In this document: positions 32,100-46,920 of the stretch, piece by piece
How the letters are laid out: each line of letters starts with the position of its first letter
Numbering within the stretch: the stretch's first letter is position 1
Assembly (NCBI GenBank): GCA_965367815.1
Contig: CBDUKN010000008.1
Coordinates: 28,237-92,236, forward strand
Length of the DNA stretch: 64,000 nucleotides
Direction of reading: 5' to 3'
Source of the DNA: an uncultured Thermoprotei archaeon
GTDB lineage: Archaea; Thermoproteota; Thermoprotei; Thermofilales; B15-G2
Program-made: the position numbers and the translations under genes
The notes under the pieces: generated by a model
The model's database searches: none
The model's input: the letters and a program-made list of their open reading frames with translations, nothing else
Told to the model about the DNA's origin: nothing

Positions 32100-33542
32100 T
32101 TAGCTTTTGACTAGTCTTCTGAGTAATGGATATGCCTCTAGAGCTCTTTCTTGAGCTATCATTGCCTGATACTGGACTAATATGCCTGCTAAAAGCAGTA
32201 TACCTATGCCAGAACCTATAACGCCTAGAATGTCGCCTATAACGCTTATTATGGCTACTATGATCGAACTGAGTACTGTTAGTATAGGTATGTATTTTCG
32301 CAGTAGATATGCTATTATTTTAGGTGAATGCCTAAATCCGGGTATCTGCATTCCAGCGCTAACTAATTGCTCTGCCTGAGACTTGGGATCCATTCCAGTA
32401 AGTTCTACCCACAGTATTCCGAAGAGAATACAGAGCCCTATTGTTATTAGTGAATACAGCAGTACGTGAATAGGGTCTTCTAACACTGAAGTTAATCCAC
32501 GTGGCGGAGTTATGTAATATATTAGGCAGCCGGGTAGAGGAACTAGTCTTCCTTCTTTAACTTCAAATTTAGCTATTAAGTTAAGCCATGTATTGCTATT
32601 GTCCCTATTGAATCGAGACCATAGTACTTGTGAAAACATATAGATATCGGTGTACAGTATGCTAGCAAAGATTAATGGGATTATTGACACATAAAGGAAT
32701 TTAAGCGGTATTTTAGCTTTAAGGCCCCTGTATTTTGAGAGAGAAACTCCTACTTCGACCTGCATGCTTTCCATGTAAATTACTAGTATGAAGAAAACTA
32801 TCATCGTAGCGAAGCCGACTATGTCTGGCAGCCCTTTTCTTACTAATACAGTCGAGACAACAGACCAATTTCCTGTATTTGTAGCATTTAATATGGCAAC
32901 TGTTAACGCTGGAATTACTCCTAGAGGCAATCCGTCAGCAAAGGGACCTATGGGCGAGAATATTTGCCAGAATATTTGCTGAGCAATTCCGGCTGCAATG
33001 AATAAGTTTACTCCGCTTCCTATACCCCATCCTTTCTGTATCATCTCGTCCATCAGAATAACTGCAAGGGATGCCATCATTAGTTGGGCAAATATGAGCG
33101 CAGCTGATGTAATTGCTAGCACTCCGTAAGCTCCTCCTAGAATGAAAGCTAAAGCCTCTACTGCGGCAAAGACTATTGCTAAAAGTTTCTGCGCCCCGCT
33201 AAAGAACGCTCTATCCTCGGGTTTGCTAAGATCTAGTTCCAGAATCTTGCTTCCAACTAGAAGTTCCAATATAATACCGCTTGTAACTATAGGTCCTATG
33301 CCGAGTTCTGCTAGTGTTCCTTTTCTAGAAGCTAGTATTATTCTGAAAAAGAATAATTCCTCGTAGCCTCTAGTTCCATAAGGTATTCCGTACAGAGGTA
33401 CTTCACACATTATTAAGTACACTATCACTACTATGGCTGTCCAGAATAGCTTCTCTCTAAGCGTAACAGGTCTTCGTGGCCTTGGAACTTCAGGCAGAAT
33501 ACTGAATGCTGACCTAATAACGTCTTTTACAGATACAGACAT
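32100..33542 (-). CDS. secY: Preprotein translocase subunit SecY
   Basis: 480-aa polytopic protein with ...SRKGTLAELGIGPIVTSGIILELL..., downstream of L15. Confidence 0.95.
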   Translation of the reverse strand: MSVSVKDVIRSAFSILPEVPRPRRPVTLREKLFWTAIVVIVYLIMCEVPLYGIPYGTRGYEELFFFRIILASRKGTLAELGIGPIVTSGIILELLVGSKILELDLSKPEDRAFFSGAQKLLAIVFAAVEALAFILGGAYGVLAITSAALIFAQLMMASLAVILMDEMIQKGWGIGSGVNLFIAAGIAQQIFWQIFSPIGPFADGLPLGVIPALTVAILNATNTGNWSVVSTVLVRKGLPDIVGFATMIVFFILVIYMESMQVEVGVSLSKYRGLKAKIPLKFLYVSIIPLIFASILYTDIYMFSQVLWSRFNRDNSNTWLNLIAKFEVKEGRLVPLPGCLIYYITPPRGLTSVLEDPIHVLLYSLITIGLCILFGILWVELTGMDPKSQAEQLVSAGMQIPGFRHSPKIIAYLLRKYIPILTVLSSIIVAIISVIGDILGVIGSGIGILLLAGILVQYQAMIAQERALEAYPLLRRLVKS

Positions 33543-33552
33543 GATATCACCT

Positions 33553-33996
33553 TTAGCTCGCTGTAATAACTTTGCCTCCAGCTGCTTTAACTTTCTCTAT
33601 AGCTTTCTCTGACGCCATTCTAACAGATATTACCACAGGTTTGGATATTTTTCCTCCCCCTAGAAGCTTGTTGTATCCTAATTTTCCTAGGTCTACATAG
33701 TACTTGTTTTCTTTCATTTCAGCCAACCCCTTTTCCATGAGTGCATCTAGCATAGAGTCTAAGTCCTTGAGATTTATTGCCTTAACTTGAGGTTTTATAG
33801 CAGGAGGCTGAGTAAATCCATGTTTACCATACCAGTCTGGCGCATATTTGATAACCCATGTCCACATGTGTTTATGATATCCTGCGTGTCCTCTTCCTCC
33901 TCTGCTTCCACTTTTTCTGTGCTGACCTACTCTCCCCCAACCATGAGTTCTCCATCCTCTGAGACTTCTAGATTTTTTCTCCCTTCTGACTACCAT
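33553..33996 (-). CDS. rpl15: Ribosomal protein L15 (uL15)
   Basis: ...GWGRVGQHRKSGSRGGRGHAG... Confidence 0.92.
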   Translation of the reverse strand: MVVRREKKSRSLRGWRTHGWGRVGQHRKSGSRGGRGHAGYHKHMWTWVIKYAPDWYGKHGFTQPPAIKPQVKAINLKDLDSMLDALMEKGLAEMKENKYYVDLGKLGYNKLLGGGKISKPVVISVRMASEKAIEKVKAAGGKVITAS

Positions 33997-34106: not shown

Positions 34107-34114
34107 TTTATAAA
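34107..34114 (+). promoter_or_regulatory. Candidate TATA box (TTTATAAA) for the inverted S5-L30 unit
   Basis: An AT-rich octamer sits ~50 nt upstream of the S5 ATG, and GGTGG lies just before the ATG. Based on position only. Confidence 0.3.
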
Positions 34115-34164
34115 GCTTAACCATAATGTGCCTTAGCTGAGAGTATTTAAGGAAAGGTGGTATT

Positions 34165-34803
34165 ATGAGTGTACTAGACACATGGGTACCTAAAACAAGA
34201 GTAGGGAGACTGGTAAAGGAAGGAAAAATAACTTCAATAGACGAGATATTCGAGAGAAACTGGCCCATTAAAGAGGTCGAGATAGTTGATATACTCTTAC
34301 CAGACCTTAAACATGAAGTACTCAACATAAACTTGGTGCAGCGCCAGACGGATAGCCCGCTTTAAGCGGGCCCGTAAGCTGGCGAAATAAGTAGATTTCA
34401 GGCAGTTGTAGCTGTCGGAAACGAGGATGGTTACGTAGGAGTGGGTGTAGGCAAAGCTAAACAAGTAAGACAGGCAATTGAAAAAGCTATCATAGATGCT
34501 AAATTAAACATCATTCCTGTAAGAAGAGGATGCGGAAGCTGGGAATGCTTATGCAATACTCCTCACAGCGTGCCCTTTAAAGTCAAAGGAAAATGCGGAA
34601 GCGTTGAAATAATTCTAATTCCAGCACCCAAAGGCGTTGGTTTGGTGGCAGGCGAGACTGCAAAAACAGTACTGCGATTAGCTGGAATTAAGGATGTTTG
34701 GACACGAACTCGAGGCGAAACGAGAACAACTATTAACTTCGCTAAAGCCACATACGAAGCCTTAAAGAAGACATATGCTATAAAGACCCCAGATAGGTGG
34801 TAA
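34165..34803 (+). CDS. rps5: Ribosomal protein S5 (uS5), two exons: 34165..34353 + 34378..34803 (204 aa after removing a 24-nt BHB intron)
   Basis: Exon 1 ends ...NLVQRQTD. Exon 2 begins [30 protein letters not shown]... and is in frame only after the intron is removed. The unspliced frame stops at 34363-34365. Confidence 0.9.
34354..34377 (+). other. Bulge-helix-bulge (hBHBh') intron in the S5 pre-mRNA
   Basis: Outer helix CGCCAG/CTGGCG, central helix ACGG/CCGT, 3-nt bulges ATA and AAG, inner hairpin GCCCGC-TTTAA-GCGGGC. Canonical cut positions restore the uS5 frame. Confidence 0.8.
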
Positions 34804-34806
34804 ACT

Positions 34807-35277
34807 TTGGGTAAAAGACTAGCTGTTATACGTATAAGGGGAACAGTAGGTGTAAGAAAAGACATAGAGTATACACTAAGGTTACTTAGGCTAGTAAGAA
34901 AATTTCACGCAGTAGTAATCGACGATAGACCGGACTACCTTGGTATGCTACAGAAGGTAAAAGACTATGTTACATGGGGAGAAATAGATGCAGAAACACT
35001 AGCCGAACTTTTAAGAAAAAGAGGTCGTCTCGTAGGAAATAGAAGACCTACAGACGAAGATGTCAAAAAGTTAGGATATAGCAGTATAGAAGAGTTTGCC
35101 GAAGCAGTAATAGAGTTTAAAGCAGAACTGAGCGACATACCTGGACTAAAACCTGTATTTAGGCTACATCCTCCTAAAGGAGGATTTAAGGGAACAATAA
35201 AGAGAATGTACGGCGACGGTGGAGAAACAGGGTATAGAGGCAAAGATATTAACGAGCTACTACGAAGAATGATTTAA
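34807..35277 (+). CDS. rpl30: Ribosomal protein L30 (uL30)
   Basis: TTG start. [25 protein letters not shown]...[10 protein letters not shown]. Confidence 0.9.
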
Positions 35278-35891
35278 GAGCTCTTCTTGCTTAATAAACT
35301 TTCGTATTTTGAAACAATTTTACTTTTAACCTCTGTAAAGTGACTCACTATATTTTCTGGCCGTAGTCCTCTTTTCAGATACTGAGAAAACTGTCTTTCA
35401 TATAAGCTAAGATCTTTCTCCAGCAAGTATTTCGCGTAATCTTCTATGTGTTTCCCTGATATTCTATCTTCCGATGGAAGTACTTCAGGAGAACATGGAA
35501 CTTTAAGTCCGGCATCGAGAGCTCCCTTTATTACAGCAAATACTTTAGACCCCTTTGTCGGTCTATGTAATCCTATATCGGGTATAGCTTCTTCTATTCC
35601 TTTAAGTCTAGCCTTATATCCTATTATCAACCCCGTTAAGTATGCTGCAGCAGTATTTGAGCAGTCGCCTAGCCAGCCATATTTTTTAGCTAGTACTTTG
35701 GAAGATATACCTACTATTGTCTCATCTCCTTCTGGTTTCGCTTTAACTATTTGTGCTATAATGTATTTGAGAGTTTTTCTTATAACTAATCTTGGTTTGT
35801 CGGAGAGTATCATTTTTCTTCTCTTGTAGTAGTTTGTTAGACCTAGTCTTCTTCTGCGGAAGGGTACTTTATAGCGCCCGTTTCGCGCCAT
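35274..35891 (-). CDS. rpl18: Ribosomal protein L18 (uL18)
   Basis: [22 protein letters not shown]...[15 protein letters not shown]. Confidence 0.92.
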
Positions 35892-35896
35892 AGCTA

Positions 35897-36337
35897 CTAC
35901 CTCTCAAGCAATTTGTGTTCCTCAATATAAGCTTTTAAGTGAGATAGACTTCTAAAGTATCCTCCTTTAGCTAGACGATAAAGTCTCCTGTAAGTTCTTG
36001 GACTAATTTTTCTTCTAGCTCTAAGTTCCTTTAGGTATCGTCTCATAGCTCTGATTTTAGCGACCCATATCTCTTTTTCATCAAATCTAGGTCCTTTTCT
36101 CTTTCCTGGTCCTCTTCTCCTGCCTTTTTTCTTCTTTAGGTGCCTGATTCTTGCTCTTACTCTAGAATTACCTTTTTTAGGCTTGACTCTAATAACTCCT
36201 TCTTTAATAAGCTTTTTAACTTCTTCTCTTGTGATTACTGTGACTAGCTCATTATGTTTAGTAGGGTCAATCCATATTCTTGATACACCTACTCCCAATA
36301 TTTCTGACGCTAACCTTTTTAGATGATCAACAGACAC
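35897..36337 (-). CDS. rpl19e: Ribosomal protein L19e (eL19)
   Basis: [20 protein letters not shown]...[12 protein letters not shown]. Confidence 0.92.
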
Positions 36338-36348
36338 TACTCCTCACC

Positions 36349-36786
36349 TCATAACTGAGGATTTAATATTTTTATATTTCGTTTTTTAGCCTCTTCAATT
36401 ATTTCCATTCTTTTTCTTTTACCAACAGTAGACGCTATTCTAATAGCTTCTCTATCAGGATCTATGTAGTCCAAATCTTTAACGTTATATACAATGACAT
36501 CCCTGAAGCCCGAAGGATGATATCCTCTAACCCTTTTAGGTCCTCTGTATCCGATTTTTACTCTCGGCGGATAACCTTTAACTTGTAATCGTATTTTGTT
36601 GTCTAAGCCTTTAGGTCTCCTCCAAGAGTCTCCTATACGCTTAAATCTCCATGCATCCATACGCATGAATCGAGGTAGTTTATTCTTGAGCTGCCTGCGG
36701 ATAATTAGCATTTTCTTTTCTAACGGTGTAAGCTTAGGTTTCACCTTTACTAACTCCTCAACGTTTTCACTCATTTTCTCCACCAC
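36349..36786 (-). CDS. rpl32e: Ribosomal protein L32e (eL32)
   Basis: ...FMRMDAWRFKRIGDSWRRPKGLDNKIRL...GYRGPKRVRGYHPSG. Confidence 0.9.
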   Translation of the reverse strand: MVEKMSENVEELVKVKPKLTPLEKKMLIIRRQLKNKLPRFMRMDAWRFKRIGDSWRRPKGLDNKIRLQVKGYPPRVKIGYRGPKRVRGYHPSGFRDVIVYNVKDLDYIDPDREAIRIASTVGKRKRMEIIEEAKKRNIKILNPQL

Positions 36787-36791
36787 CTATA

Positions 36792-37184
36792 TTAATAAAC
36801 ATAAGCTACTAAGACTCCACCAATACCTAACTTTTTAGCCTCTTTGTGAGTCATTACGCCTTTAGACGTCGACACTATAAGTACTCCCATGTTTCTTGCA
36901 GGGAGATACTTTTCTTCCCATTCTTCAAATTCATTTTTCTTTACAGGAAATCTTGGTTTAATAACTCCGCACTTATTAATTCGACCTAAAAGTTGTACTC
37001 TTAGCTTACCAGACCTACCATCATCTATGTATTCTATTTCGCCGATATATCCTTCTTTCTGCATTACTCTTAGTACCTGAGCTATGAACTTTGAAGCCGG
37101 ATATATTATACACTCCTTATGCCCTCTTGCTTCATTGTTCACTATTGTTGCCAACGCATTTGCGAGAGTATCCATGAGCACCAT
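36792..37184 (-). CDS. rps8: Ribosomal protein S8 (uS8)
   Basis: [22 protein letters not shown]...GVLVAYVY. Confidence 0.93.
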
Positions 37185-39604: not shown

Positions 39605-39798
39605 CTAACCATTTTTACTACTCACCACCTATAATTTTAACTTTTTCGCTTATCTAATCTTACACATTAATAGCATACAATAACTTAGGTAACTGTCTCT
39701 GCTTTTTTACATTAATATTCGAAAATTTCATTATATTAATTTCCAAACAATACATTTTTACAAGAAAAATAAAATACTTGTTTAAAAGTTCTAGAAAG

Positions 39799-39893
39799 TG
39801 CGCCGGCCGGGATTCGAACCCGGGTTCGCCGGCTTTCTTCACGCATTATAGCGTGTGGGAGGCCGGCATCCTACCAGGCTAGACCACCGGCGC
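39799..39893 (-). tRNA. tRNA-Gly(CCC) with a ~21-nt intron after position 37 (intron ~39835..39855)
   Basis: Manual cloverleaf: acceptor GCGCCGG/CCGGCGC, anticodon stem CCGGC/GCCGG, loop CTCCCA|intron|A, T arm CCGGG-TTCGAAT-CCCGG. The intron has an ACGC..GCGT hairpin. Confidence 0.85.
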
Positions 39894-44806: not shown

Positions 44807-46270
44807 TTATCCCTTAGTCACAGCTATAGGTACTAATCGAACCACTTTTGTGGCTATTCCAACTCTATGACTTACTTCAGCAACTCTGTCAACATCCTTG
44901 TAAGCTCCTGGTGCTTCTTCAGCAACCACTCTGATGTTTGCTGCTCTTACTAGAATTCCCCGCTTTTCTAGCTCCGCCTTAACTTTAGAGCCCCAGTAAC
45001 GCCTTATTGCTGCCTGTCTGCTTAAGAATCTTCCAGCACCATGAGCAGTACTTCCGAAAGTTATTTCCATGGCACGTGGAGTTCCTACGAGAGCATATGA
45101 TGCTGTACCCATCGATCCTGGTATCAAGACAGGCTGCCCAATGTTTTTGTACTTTGCTGGAATATCAGGGTGTCCAGGAGGAAACGCCCTTGTCGCACCC
45201 TTTCTATGAACTATTACTTTTTTAGTAGCACCGTCGATTTTATGGTATTCTATTTTAGCAATATTGTGAGCAACATCATAAACTAGCTGCAGTCCGAGTT
45301 CGTCTGCTTTTTTCTTAAATACTTTCTCGAAAGCCTGTCTAGTCCAGTGAAGTATGCACTGTCTATTAGCCCAAGCGAAGTTACAGGCGCAGCTCATTGC
45401 TGCAAAATAGTCCTCTGCTTCCTTGCTTTTTACAGGAGCGCAAGCAAGCTCTCTATCGGGAGGCCTTATTCCATACTTTCTCATAGCGTGCTCCATCACT
45501 CTCAAATAGTCGCTACATACTTGATGCCCGAAACCTCTACTTCCAGTATGTATCATTACTGTTACTTGTCCTTCTTCATATATTCCCATTTCTTTAGCTG
45601 CTTTAGGATCGTATATTTTGTCTACCACCTGTATCTCAAGGAAATGATTTCCGCTTCCTAGCGTTCCTAGTTGTCCTGAACCTCTCTGCTTAGCGCGCTC
45701 TGAAACTTTATCGGGGTTTGCTGTCTTCATACATCCTTTTTCTTCGCAGAATTCCGCGTCTTCTGGCCATCCATAGCCATGTTTAATAGCCCAACCTACT
45801 CCTTCGCTCAGAACATTATCTAATTCACTTGTCGAAAGCCTTATTTTACCTCTTACACCTACACCTGAAGGTACTAAGGAGAAAATAGTGTCTATAAGCT
45901 CTTTTAGTACAGGTTTTACATCTTTTATCGTTAGGTCTGTTCGCACAAGTCTTACTCCGCAGTTAATATCGTATCCAACTCCTCCTGGACTAATTACACC
46001 TTCTTCAGCATCTATTGCAGCGACTCCACCTATTGGAAAACCGTATCCCTGATGAGCATCTGGTAGAGCTATAGCATATTTATAGATTCCAGGTAAGTGA
46101 GCAACGTTTGCACATTGTACTAACGTGAGGTCACTCTTCATTTTCTGTAGAAGATAATCATCTGCGAAGATCCTTCCAGGAACTCTCATTCCAGGCTTAT
46201 ATGACTTAGGAATTTCCCATACGTAGTCTCCTAGCTTAATTAAAGGAACATTAACAGACATTATCTTCAC
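44807..46270 (-). CDS. rtcB: RNA-splicing ligase RtcB
   Basis: [30 protein letters not shown] and TAHGAGR. Confidence 0.95.
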
Positions 46271-46362: not shown

Positions 46363-46821
46363 CTATATATCTAAGACAAACTTGACCACATACTTTCCAT
46401 TTTCTTCACTAATTTCCATTAATGAATAAGTAACTGCCTTTACTAGAGTTCTTTGTTCGTGTTTTTGCGGATCAAAGGGTTCTCCCCAAGCTTCAGCTGT
46501 GAGTATAAAGGTATCGTTCTTCTTAGATATGCTTTGAACACGTATTTTTGAAAAAACTAAATTCTTTACTTCAAAAAGATAGAGCAATTCTTCAAGCCAA
46601 TTATATAGAAGAGACTGCTTATCAAAGCCCTCAACTTCAATTTTTTCACATACCTTAGAGTCAACTTTGCTTGTATCTGTCATCACTTCAAAAAGAGCTA
46701 CTCCCGCATTAGCGTATGCCTCTTCAAGTGTTCTTCCATAAGCCGCTATATATACGTCGGCAGTATGCTCAAGAAACTTAAATCTCTTAAAATTCTCATT
46801 TTTAGTCATTGTCTCCCCCAT
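46363..46821 (-). CDS. Archease (RtcB activator)
   Basis: FKFLEHTADVYIAAYG signature. The start is set at an internal Met because the track ORF N-terminus (to 46914) reads through the tRNA-Ser gene. Confidence 0.85.
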   Translation of the reverse strand: MGETMTKNENFKRFKFLEHTADVYIAAYGRTLEEAYANAGVALFEVMTDTSKVDSKVCEKIEVEGFDKQSLLYNWLEELLYLFEVKNLVFSKIRVQSISKKNDTFILTAEAWGEPFDPQKHEQRTLVKAVTYSLMEISEENGKYVVKFVLDI

Positions 46822-46835
46822 GTAACAAATATTGG

Positions 46836-46920
46836 CGCCGGGGGTGGGATTTGAACCCACGCGGCCCATAGGGCCATCGGCTCTCCAGGCCGACGCCTTA
46901 GACCACTCGGCCACCCCGGC
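46836..46920 (-). tRNA. tRNA-Ser(GGA), intron-less
   Basis: Manual cloverleaf: GCCGGGG acceptor, long variable arm TGGCCCTATGGGCCGC, anticodon loop CTGGAGA, T arm GTGGG-TTCAAAT-CCCAC. CCA follows in the DNA. Confidence 0.9.

Follow-up and report, generated by a model that had tools for sequence, protein, structure and literature searches.

A probable bulge-helix-bulge intron in the gene for ribosomal protein uS5 of uncultured archaea

The gene for ribosomal protein uS5 in an uncultured Thermoprotei archaeon (GTDB order Thermofilales, B15-G2) is interrupted by 24 nt that lie within a motif of the bulge-helix-bulge (BHB) type, which is the structure recognized by the archaeal tRNA-splicing endonuclease EndA. 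The gene is carried by a 64,000-nt stretch of contig CBDUKN010000008.1 (assembly GCA_965367815.1, positions 28,237 to 92,236 of the forward strand), which we analyzed as a whole and refer to as the window. We consider it about 90% probable that the insert is a genuine archaeal BHB intron in the pre-mRNA of this essential ribosomal protein. The case combines the structure itself, the conserved protein that is restored by its removal, the conservation and covariation of the intron, the selection acting on the exons, an RNA ligase encoded nearby and a second mRNA intron, of a known family, in the same window. Judged by its sequence, the candidate has every feature by which a BHB intron is recognized. 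Apparently, uS5 is the second protein-coding gene known to carry such an intron.

A BHB motif at the break in the uS5 frame

The uS5 open reading frame (ORF) starts at 34165 and terminates at a TAA at 34363-34365. The insert at 34354-34377 (AGCCCGCTTTAAGCGGGCCCGTAA) holds this stop codon and a second in-frame TAA at 34375-77. The uS5 reading resumes at 34378 (AGEISRF...) in the same frame, with no start codon there; the first in-frame start of exon 2 is a GTG at 34441, 21 codons downstream of the junction.

In RNA, the insert and its flanks form a complete motif of outer helix (h), central helix (H), two bulges and inner helix (h'), hereafter hBHBh'. RNAfold returned this motif as both the minimum-free-energy (MFE) structure and the centroid (-29.9 kcal/mol, z = -3.7); of 200 shuffled sequences, 1 folded equally well. 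The 6-bp outer helix pairs CGCCAG (34342-47) with CUGGCG (34379-84), and the 4-bp central helix pairs ACGG (34348-51) with CCGU (34372-75). The 3-nt bulges, AUA at 34352-54 and AAG at 34376-78, lie on opposite strands exactly 4 bp apart. They enclose an inner hairpin, GCCCGC-UUUAA-GCGGGC (34355-71), whose helix has 6-7 bp including a (U)/(A) pair (strands 34355-61 and 34365-71, loop 34362-64). The 5' side is ordered h-H-bulge-h' and the 3' side h'-H-bulge-h, as in genuine pre-tRNA introns of archaea and eukaryotes with the canonical 37/38 architecture. BHB motifs are cut between the second and third residue of each bulge (PMC2738675), and the predicted cuts are after 34353 in the first bulge and after 34377 in the second.

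We scanned both strands of the window (128 kb) for strict Watson-Crick BHB motifs with h ≥6 bp, H = 4 bp, h' ≥6 bp and an intron of ≤100 nt. The uS5 site was the sole match, and 12 dinucleotide shuffles of the window gave none. When h and h' were lowered to ≥5 bp, 1 match was observed vs 0.17 expected. Taken by itself, the motif is moderately improbable and only suggestive. Chance is excluded because the motif coincides exactly with an insert that breaks the frame of a conserved gene, and because of the comparative data presented below.

Applied to this motif, the cleavage rule removes the 24 nt and gives a 204-amino-acid (aa) uS5 that reads ...QRQTD|AGEISRF.... The predicted mRNA junction is ...CAG ACG GAU|GCU GGC GAA... 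(QTD|AGE; CAGACGGAU|GCUGGCGAA). The Pfam profile Ribosomal_S5 matches the spliced protein over its full length (1-65/65, residues 48-112), unbroken across the junction at residues 63/64, and Ribosomal_S5_C is matched as well. The 40 intronless homologues that we compared have QTDAGE or QTDSGE at this place without an indel, in agreement with the predicted junction. Moving the junction by 1 nt in either direction gives a different sequence, as can be read directly from the DNA.

An initial annotation of the locus had given the coordinates, the sequences, the frame break and the 24-nt insert exactly to the base. It had also proposed the fold at 34342-34384 and the GAT|GCT junction leading to an in-frame 204-aa uS5; the first is the MFE and centroid structure, and the second is borne out by the unbroken match to the S5 N-domain and by the 40 indel-free homologues.

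Same-site introns, covariation and selection in other lineages

We searched for other carriers through proteins, genomes and metagenomes. The nearest full-length uS5 proteins in a database of 5.8 billion clusters were only 82% identical, and all were uninterrupted. A scan of genomes yielded a single close relative of additional length, Thermoprotei archaeon B15_G2 from the Guaymas Basin (L027), whose exons are ~80-84% identical in nucleotides to the uS5 exons of the window. Its insert lies at the identical position and has 23 nt, with the loop AGUA instead of UUUAA, the second bulge AGG instead of AAG, and unchanged helices. Translation cannot tolerate an insert of 23 nt. The intron of another of the closest relatives (L119) has 24 nt at the same site and is identical to that of the window at 23 of the 24, with a single change in the loop.

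A search with the 66-aa exon-1 ORF retrieved eleven clusters of 65-77-aa proteins that end just past QRQTD or QKQTD. For four of these clusters, the underlying DNA has an insert at the identical nucleotide, of 19, 19, 32 and 29 nt respectively, which moves the frame by +1 or +2. Metagenomes were scanned with the pattern CAGACGGAYA-N(8-38)-CCGTARGCTGG. Altogether, metagenomes and metagenome-assembled genomes yielded at least 23 distinct uS5 intron regions, with an identical insertion nucleotide and introns of 19-32 nt. The carriers include Thermofilaceae-like Thermoprotei and Candidatus (Ca.) Nezhaarchaeales. Among the lengths seen, only 24 and 30 nt are multiples of 3, the others including 19, 20 and 23 nt and lengths in the 28-32 range. 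Since most lengths are no multiple of 3, the intron would have to be removed from the RNA. About 40 of the 71 pattern matches in metagenomes were not in uS5 and were set aside as chance matches, being about the number expected for 21 specified bases. Those inspected covered four loci from three of the recurring groups, and the ones with a clear frame sit within uninterrupted ORFs, such as a RibD-like ORF from soil.

In a neighbour-joining tree of uS5 proteins (~200 residues, and thus of low resolution), the carriers form three clusters among intronless lineages; three carrier loci with introns of 24-31 nt (L101, L107 and L116) were left off the tree. Clade A, with the window, L027 and L119, has introns of 23-24 nt and the hairpin GCCCGC. 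Introns of 19-23 nt with the hairpin GCCC or ACCCC characterize clade B, and introns of 29-32 nt with the hairpin CCGCCUAGC or UCGCCUAGC characterize clade C. The latter includes proteins labelled 'hypothetical protein [Candidatus Nezhaarchaeales archaeon]' at NCBI. The NCBI taxonomy places Ca. Nezhaarchaeales in a phylum separate from Thermoproteota, and the carriers thus span two NCBI phyla. The intron is common to at least three uS5 clades and is not peculiar to this genome. A single ancient gain with later losses could explain its distribution, and so could insertions repeated at the same site. A history of gain and then loss has been argued for the intron in cbf5, the gene for the H/ACA pseudouridine synthase, of Crenarchaeota (Yokobori et al., 2009, PMC2738675). 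The uS5 intron has probably been overlooked so far because all of its carriers are uncultured.

We then considered the conservation of the structure. All variants have an MFE fold with the 4-bp helix, the bulge on the 5' side and the inner hairpin, and the two 3-nt bulges 4 bp apart have the same geometry in all 23 homologous sites. The first pair of the inner helix is G:C in 7 sites, C:G in 8, U:A in 7 and A:U in 1, and the third is C:G in 8, G:C in 14 and A:U in 1. In a length-normalized alignment, every cell of the inner helix is paired (100%); 3 of the 4 proximal h' pairs show compensatory changes, and 24 cells are altered on both sides. The covariation score of h' was 0.207 vs 0.047 for shuffles, none of the 500 shuffles reaching the native value, and slid control alignments contained no compensatory changes. 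Run independently on twelve native sequences, RNAalifold returned a consensus of h (3 bp), H (4 bp), a 3-nt bulge, h' (6 bp) and a 3-nt bulge, in which 5 of the 13 pairs show compensatory changes and 0 are broken. The exons flanking the intron are affected as well. Carriers reached by the protein route all read CAG ACG GAY|GCU GG, and ACG and GCU are fixed in carriers, vs 5/40 (Thr-ACG) and 6/40 (Ala-GCU) in the 40 intronless genes that encode the same peptide. Pairing constrains the exon nucleotides of carriers, synonymous sites included.

Comparison of the window with L119 and L027 revealed strong purifying selection on both exons. The ratio of nonsynonymous to synonymous substitution rates (dN/dS) was 0.014-0.048 for exon 1 and 0.004-0.018 for exon 2 (0.004-0.05 over both), at a dS of ~1-2, which is saturating. 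Low dN/dS at saturating dS, together with intact intron helices, indicates that the gene is functional and that the structure of the intron is constrained. Assemblies from ENA, JGI, Logan and NCBI hold more than 21 contigs with the exon-1 ORF, and all 10 of the independent contigs examined among them carry the identical 24-nt intron.

These results bear on three further points of the initial annotation. The need for splicing that it had inferred for the uS5 mRNA agrees with the same-site introns of frame-shifting lengths, the covariation and the purifying selection. An alignment of relatives, which it had named as a check of lineage specificity, finds the intron in at least 23 distinct uS5 genes of at least three clades, and the assembly artefact that it had named as a way to fail is countered by the 10 identical contigs.

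Splicing machinery, a cbf5 intron and other features of the window

RtcB, the presumed joiner of the exons, and its activator archease are encoded 10-12 kb from uS5 (Table 1). The pair had been assigned to 44.8-46.8 kb, and Pfam confirms both genes. The longest archease ORF overlaps a tRNA-Ser gene (46833-46920, - strand) by ~80 nt, and the Archease domain starts at residue 45; the true start is probably internal to the listed ORF. Two other tRNA genes, at 51812-51911 (+ strand, 100 nt) and 39798-39893 (- strand, 96 nt), are long enough to hold introns. The former was detected by Rfam and missed by ARAGORN.

The window also carries cbf5, with a 22-nt intron (Table 1). A 237-aa ORF of this gene matches TruB_N from position 70 onward only. 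The BHB motif of cbf5 is relaxed, with a central helix CCCU/GGGG that includes one G-U pair, bulges AGA and AUA, a hairpin GCCCC-UUUAG-GGGGC and no outer helix. By the BHB rule, GTL|DPKV is rejoined inside the codon of the catalytic Asp, as described for cbf5 (PMC2738675). The insert is the established crenarchaeal cbf5 intron and serves as an internal positive control for mRNA processing via BHB motifs in this organism. The uS5 intron falls outside the cbf5 family, since it lies between Asp63 and Ala64 of uS5 and not in the catalytic Asp codon of GTLD. In a relaxed BHB scan of the window combined with an ORF-joining test, uS5 and cbf5 were the only compact GC-rich candidates among 67 matches. 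The same scan on 1.06 Mb of fetched loci was too noisy to nominate new cases, especially on GC-rich bacterial contigs.

Two side observations concern cbf5. Its intron hairpin resembles that of uS5 (GCCCGC-UUUAA-GCGGGC in uS5), a single observation that has no statistical weight, as none of the fetched loci, searched for cbf5 to see whether the two hairpins co-vary across lineages, contained the gene. In the protein database, truncated Cbf5 N-terminal ORFs abound, with 135 clusters that include Ca. Caldarchaeum and Zestosphaera.

The genes for uS5 and uL30 are on the + strand (34165-35277), and the flanking genes of the cluster are on the - strand, with uS8, eL32, eL19 and uL18 at 32100-33996 and uL15 and SecY at 35274-37184. 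This inversion is common to L027, L119, L155 and the intronless L001 and L002, and is absent in L082 and L086. We rejected a tie between inversion and intron because L001 and L002 share the inversion without the intron; the inversion therefore predates the intron or is independent of it. A TATA-like box upstream of uS5 (Table 1), kept with its flanks in the 85%-identical relative L027, is likely the promoter of the inverted uS5-uL30 unit.

A second canonical-looking hBHBh' element lies in intergenic DNA at 4709-4814 (+ strand). Its outer helix measures 10 bp, G-U pairs among them, its central helix 4 bp and its inner helix 8 bp; both bulges read UUA. The element is the MFE structure (z = -3.8); the part that would be excised covers 4725-4803 (79 nt). 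Against Rfam, positions 4250-4960 gave only a sub-threshold match to sRNA162 (25.7 bits vs a gathering score of 78). The element could be a BHB-processed or circularized small RNA. Between it and a TnpB-like ORF, positions 4270-4700 (either strand) form a GC-rich, structured-looking stretch in a window of 39% GC. This 477-aa ORF (2505-3938, - strand) has a Cas12f1-like TNB domain of the TnpB/IS200-IS605 OrfB type with CxxC zinc-finger motifs, adjoins the eS1 gene and is a probable insertion-sequence remnant.

Table 1. Coordinates of the uS5 gene, its predicted intron and related features of the window
Feature	Position	Strand	Description
TATA-like box	34109..34116	+	TTTATAAA, ~50 nt upstream of the uS5 start; read from sequence
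uS5 exon 1	34165..34353	+	63 codons, ...LVQRQTD; the 3' 12 nt (CGCCAG ACGG AU) supply the 5' sides of the outer helix and the central helix plus nt 1-2 of the first bulge
Complete hBHBh' motif	34342..34384	+	43 nt; MFE and centroid; the RNAalifold consensus of 12 homologous sites has the same architecture
Predicted BHB intron	34354..34377	+	24 nt, AGCCCGCUUUAAGCGGGCCCGUAA; exon-1-frame stops at 34363-65 and 34375-77
uS5 exon 2	34378..34803	+	141 codons and stop, ...DRW*; 5' end without a start codon
RtcB	44807..46270	-	3'-phosphate/5'-OH RNA ligase, presumed exon joiner; Pfam RtcB 1-426/426, E = 4e-183
Archease	46363..46914	-	RtcB activator; Pfam Archease 1-136/136 at residues 45-183
cbf5 gene	50748..51762	+	exon 1 50748-50961; intron 50962-50983 (22 nt, AGCCCCUUUAGGGGGCGGGGAU); exon 2 50984-51762

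Competing explanations, mechanism and known systems

Several observations weigh against this reading. Neither the central helix (ACGG/CCGU) nor the CAG/CUG part of the outer helix ever varies, and both are hence uninformative for covariation; at the loci found by the search pattern this invariance was imposed by the pattern, and only the six lineages reached via proteins show it independently. Outside the window's clade, the outer helix has 3 bp only (CAG/CUG), with an h' of 4-11 bp, and RNAfold there sometimes favours a 2x2 internal loop. For ten carrier lineages, the exact sequence of the spliced uS5 protein was looked up in a collection of 15 billion proteins that includes assemblies of public sequencing runs, and none was present. 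Finally, Pfam detected no EndA among the 31 window ORFs scanned. The endonuclease gene must then lie elsewhere in the genome, and the intron-length tRNAs and the cbf5 intron indicate that it exists.

We weighed four other explanations, each of which is contradicted by specific results and which together take up only the small remainder of the probability. Splicing would not be needed if the ribosome hopped over the insert, as it does in T4 gene 60, or read through its stop codons, and the short length of the insert and its stable hairpin are features of some bypass elements. However, inserts of 19-32 nt would demand a different frame change in each lineage, and the codons for take-off and landing do not match (GAU or GAC before the insert, GCU after it). 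Moreover, what is conserved and covaries is a pair of 3-nt bulges 4 bp apart with their flanking helices, the geometry that EndA recognizes, and the pairing constrains synonymous sites in the exons. Such recoding is very improbable, and we give the same low credence to a gene in two pieces, whose BHB motif would be cut and left unjoined, as in a regulatory cleavage, or whose two ORFs would be translated separately and assemble on the ribosome. Gene callers do give two ORFs here, and some archaea, Nanoarchaeum for one, are known to have split genes for proteins. Yet there is no start codon at the exon-2 junction, and the 21 codons that precede the GTG at 34441 belong to an exon under strong purifying selection. 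The break also falls inside the conserved S5 N-domain, and RtcB and archease are available to rejoin RNA cut at a BHB motif, as for cbf5.

The remaining two explanations would deny that the interrupted gene is real or in use. A decaying copy of uS5, with a functional copy elsewhere in the genome, would fit a reading frame that is formally broken, but purifying selection on both exons is strong at saturating dS, and three uS5 clades from two NCBI phyla have retained this interruption. As the gene also sits in its normal ribosomal-protein cluster and the window holds no second copy of uS5, we regard a pseudogene as less probable still. The least credible explanation is that a sequencing or assembly artefact inserted the 24 nt. 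Independent assemblies already refute it: the contigs with the identical insert come from different samples, assemblers and archives, and diverged versions occupy the same site in many other metagenomes.

For a BHB intron in uS5, cleavage, ligation and the enzymes responsible would be those of the established pathway. The 43-nt motif would fold co-transcriptionally, and EndA would cut after the second nucleotide of each bulge, leaving 2',3'-cyclic phosphate and 5'-OH ends. Archease-activated RtcB would then join the exons at QTD|AGE and would probably also circularize the 24-nt intron. Only the spliced mRNA would yield the 204-aa uS5, while translation of the unspliced RNA would stop at the intron TAA after 66 residues. 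Most simply, the intron is inherited and tolerated, as that of cbf5 would be; it may have a regulatory role, for which this analysis gives no support. It is rather unlikely that the intron is ancient and actively retained, predating the split of Thermoprotei and Ca. Nezhaarchaeota, or mobile between genes and lineages via reverse splicing by EndA and RtcB, to which the likeness of its hairpin to that of the cbf5 intron in the same genome would point, and acts as a checkpoint on uS5 synthesis. If this were true, the synthesis of an essential protein of the 30S subunit would depend on the tRNA-splicing machinery, coupling ribosome production to RNA-processing capacity, and annotation would understate by far how common BHB introns are in the mRNA of uncultured archaea.

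The BHB intron in the cbf5 pre-mRNA of Crenarchaeota was reportedly described by Watanabe et al. in 2002 and by Yoshinari et al. in 2006. For coding sequences, cbf5 is the only archaeal BHB intron named by Schwarz et al. (2020, PMC7714728), alongside the case of HVO_1309 in a 5' untranslated region of Haloferax volcanii, and a 2025 paper cites only the cbf5 work for such introns (PMC12397907). The literature searched, with subscription-only papers outside its scope, describes no BHB intron for uS5 or for another ribosomal protein gene, which agrees with the view of the initial annotation that cbf5 was the sole known case. Having been cited as such for more than 20 years, cbf5 would no longer be a one-off once a second, conserved case exists in an essential gene, and the extent of mRNA splicing in archaea becomes a testable question. 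The uS5 gene would also offer a natural strict hBHBh' substrate inside an ORF, useful for studying the competition between splicing and coupled transcription-translation. The patchy distribution of its intron at one identical site informs the gain and loss of BHB introns.

There is also a practical consequence, as uS5 is a standard phylogenomic and completeness marker. In public annotation of carriers, exon 1 appears as a 'hypothetical protein' of 59-77 aa and the C-terminal part as an S5 fragment of 52-133 aa. We saw this mis-annotation at L088/L089, in the P0130 cluster, at L082-L087 and at L161-L170, an example being MEM2214118.1 (Ca. Nezhaarchaeales, exon 1). Marker extraction and annotation are therefore systematically wrong for Ca. 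Nezhaarchaeales and several lineages of Thermoprotei.

Among known systems, the cbf5 intron is the closest. Both are short BHB introns in genes for proteins of the RNA machinery (16-44 nt in cbf5 and 19-32 nt in uS5), both are cut, or predicted to be cut, between nucleotides 2 and 3 of the bulges, and in both the lengths are often not multiples of 3, mis-annotation follows and a patchy phylogenetic distribution suggests gain and loss. The host gene differs, uS5 being an essential structural protein of the ribosome. In the window's clade, the uS5 motif is a strict hBHBh' that should suit any type of EndA, whereas most cbf5 introns, including that of the window, are relaxed and need the heterotetrameric crenarchaeal enzyme. 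Moreover, cDNA and cleavage in vitro have demonstrated that cbf5 is spliced, while the splicing of uS5 is predicted from sequence.

Archaeal introns and processing stems of tRNA and rRNA, handled by EndA and RtcB, share with uS5 the recognition motif, the cleavage rule and presumably the enzymes, and the length of the uS5 intron falls within the 11-175 nt of tRNA introns (PMC2738675). In uS5, however, the substrate would be the ORF of an mRNA, with exon halves under both coding and pairing constraints and splicing in competition with translation. The intron of HVO_1309 is likewise in an mRNA substrate of the archaeal splicing endonuclease, but it belongs to a euryarchaeon and to an untranslated leader, and no reading frame has to be restored by taking it out. 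Finally, HAC1 and XBP1, spliced by Ire1 together with tRNA ligase or RTCB, also have short, stem-loop-defined mRNA introns that are independent of the spliceosome and sealed by a tRNA ligase (RtcB in metazoa), with splicing that alters or restores the reading frame. They are not homologous to the uS5 intron and differ from it in relying on the Ire1 endonuclease and a different motif, as part of a regulated stress response.

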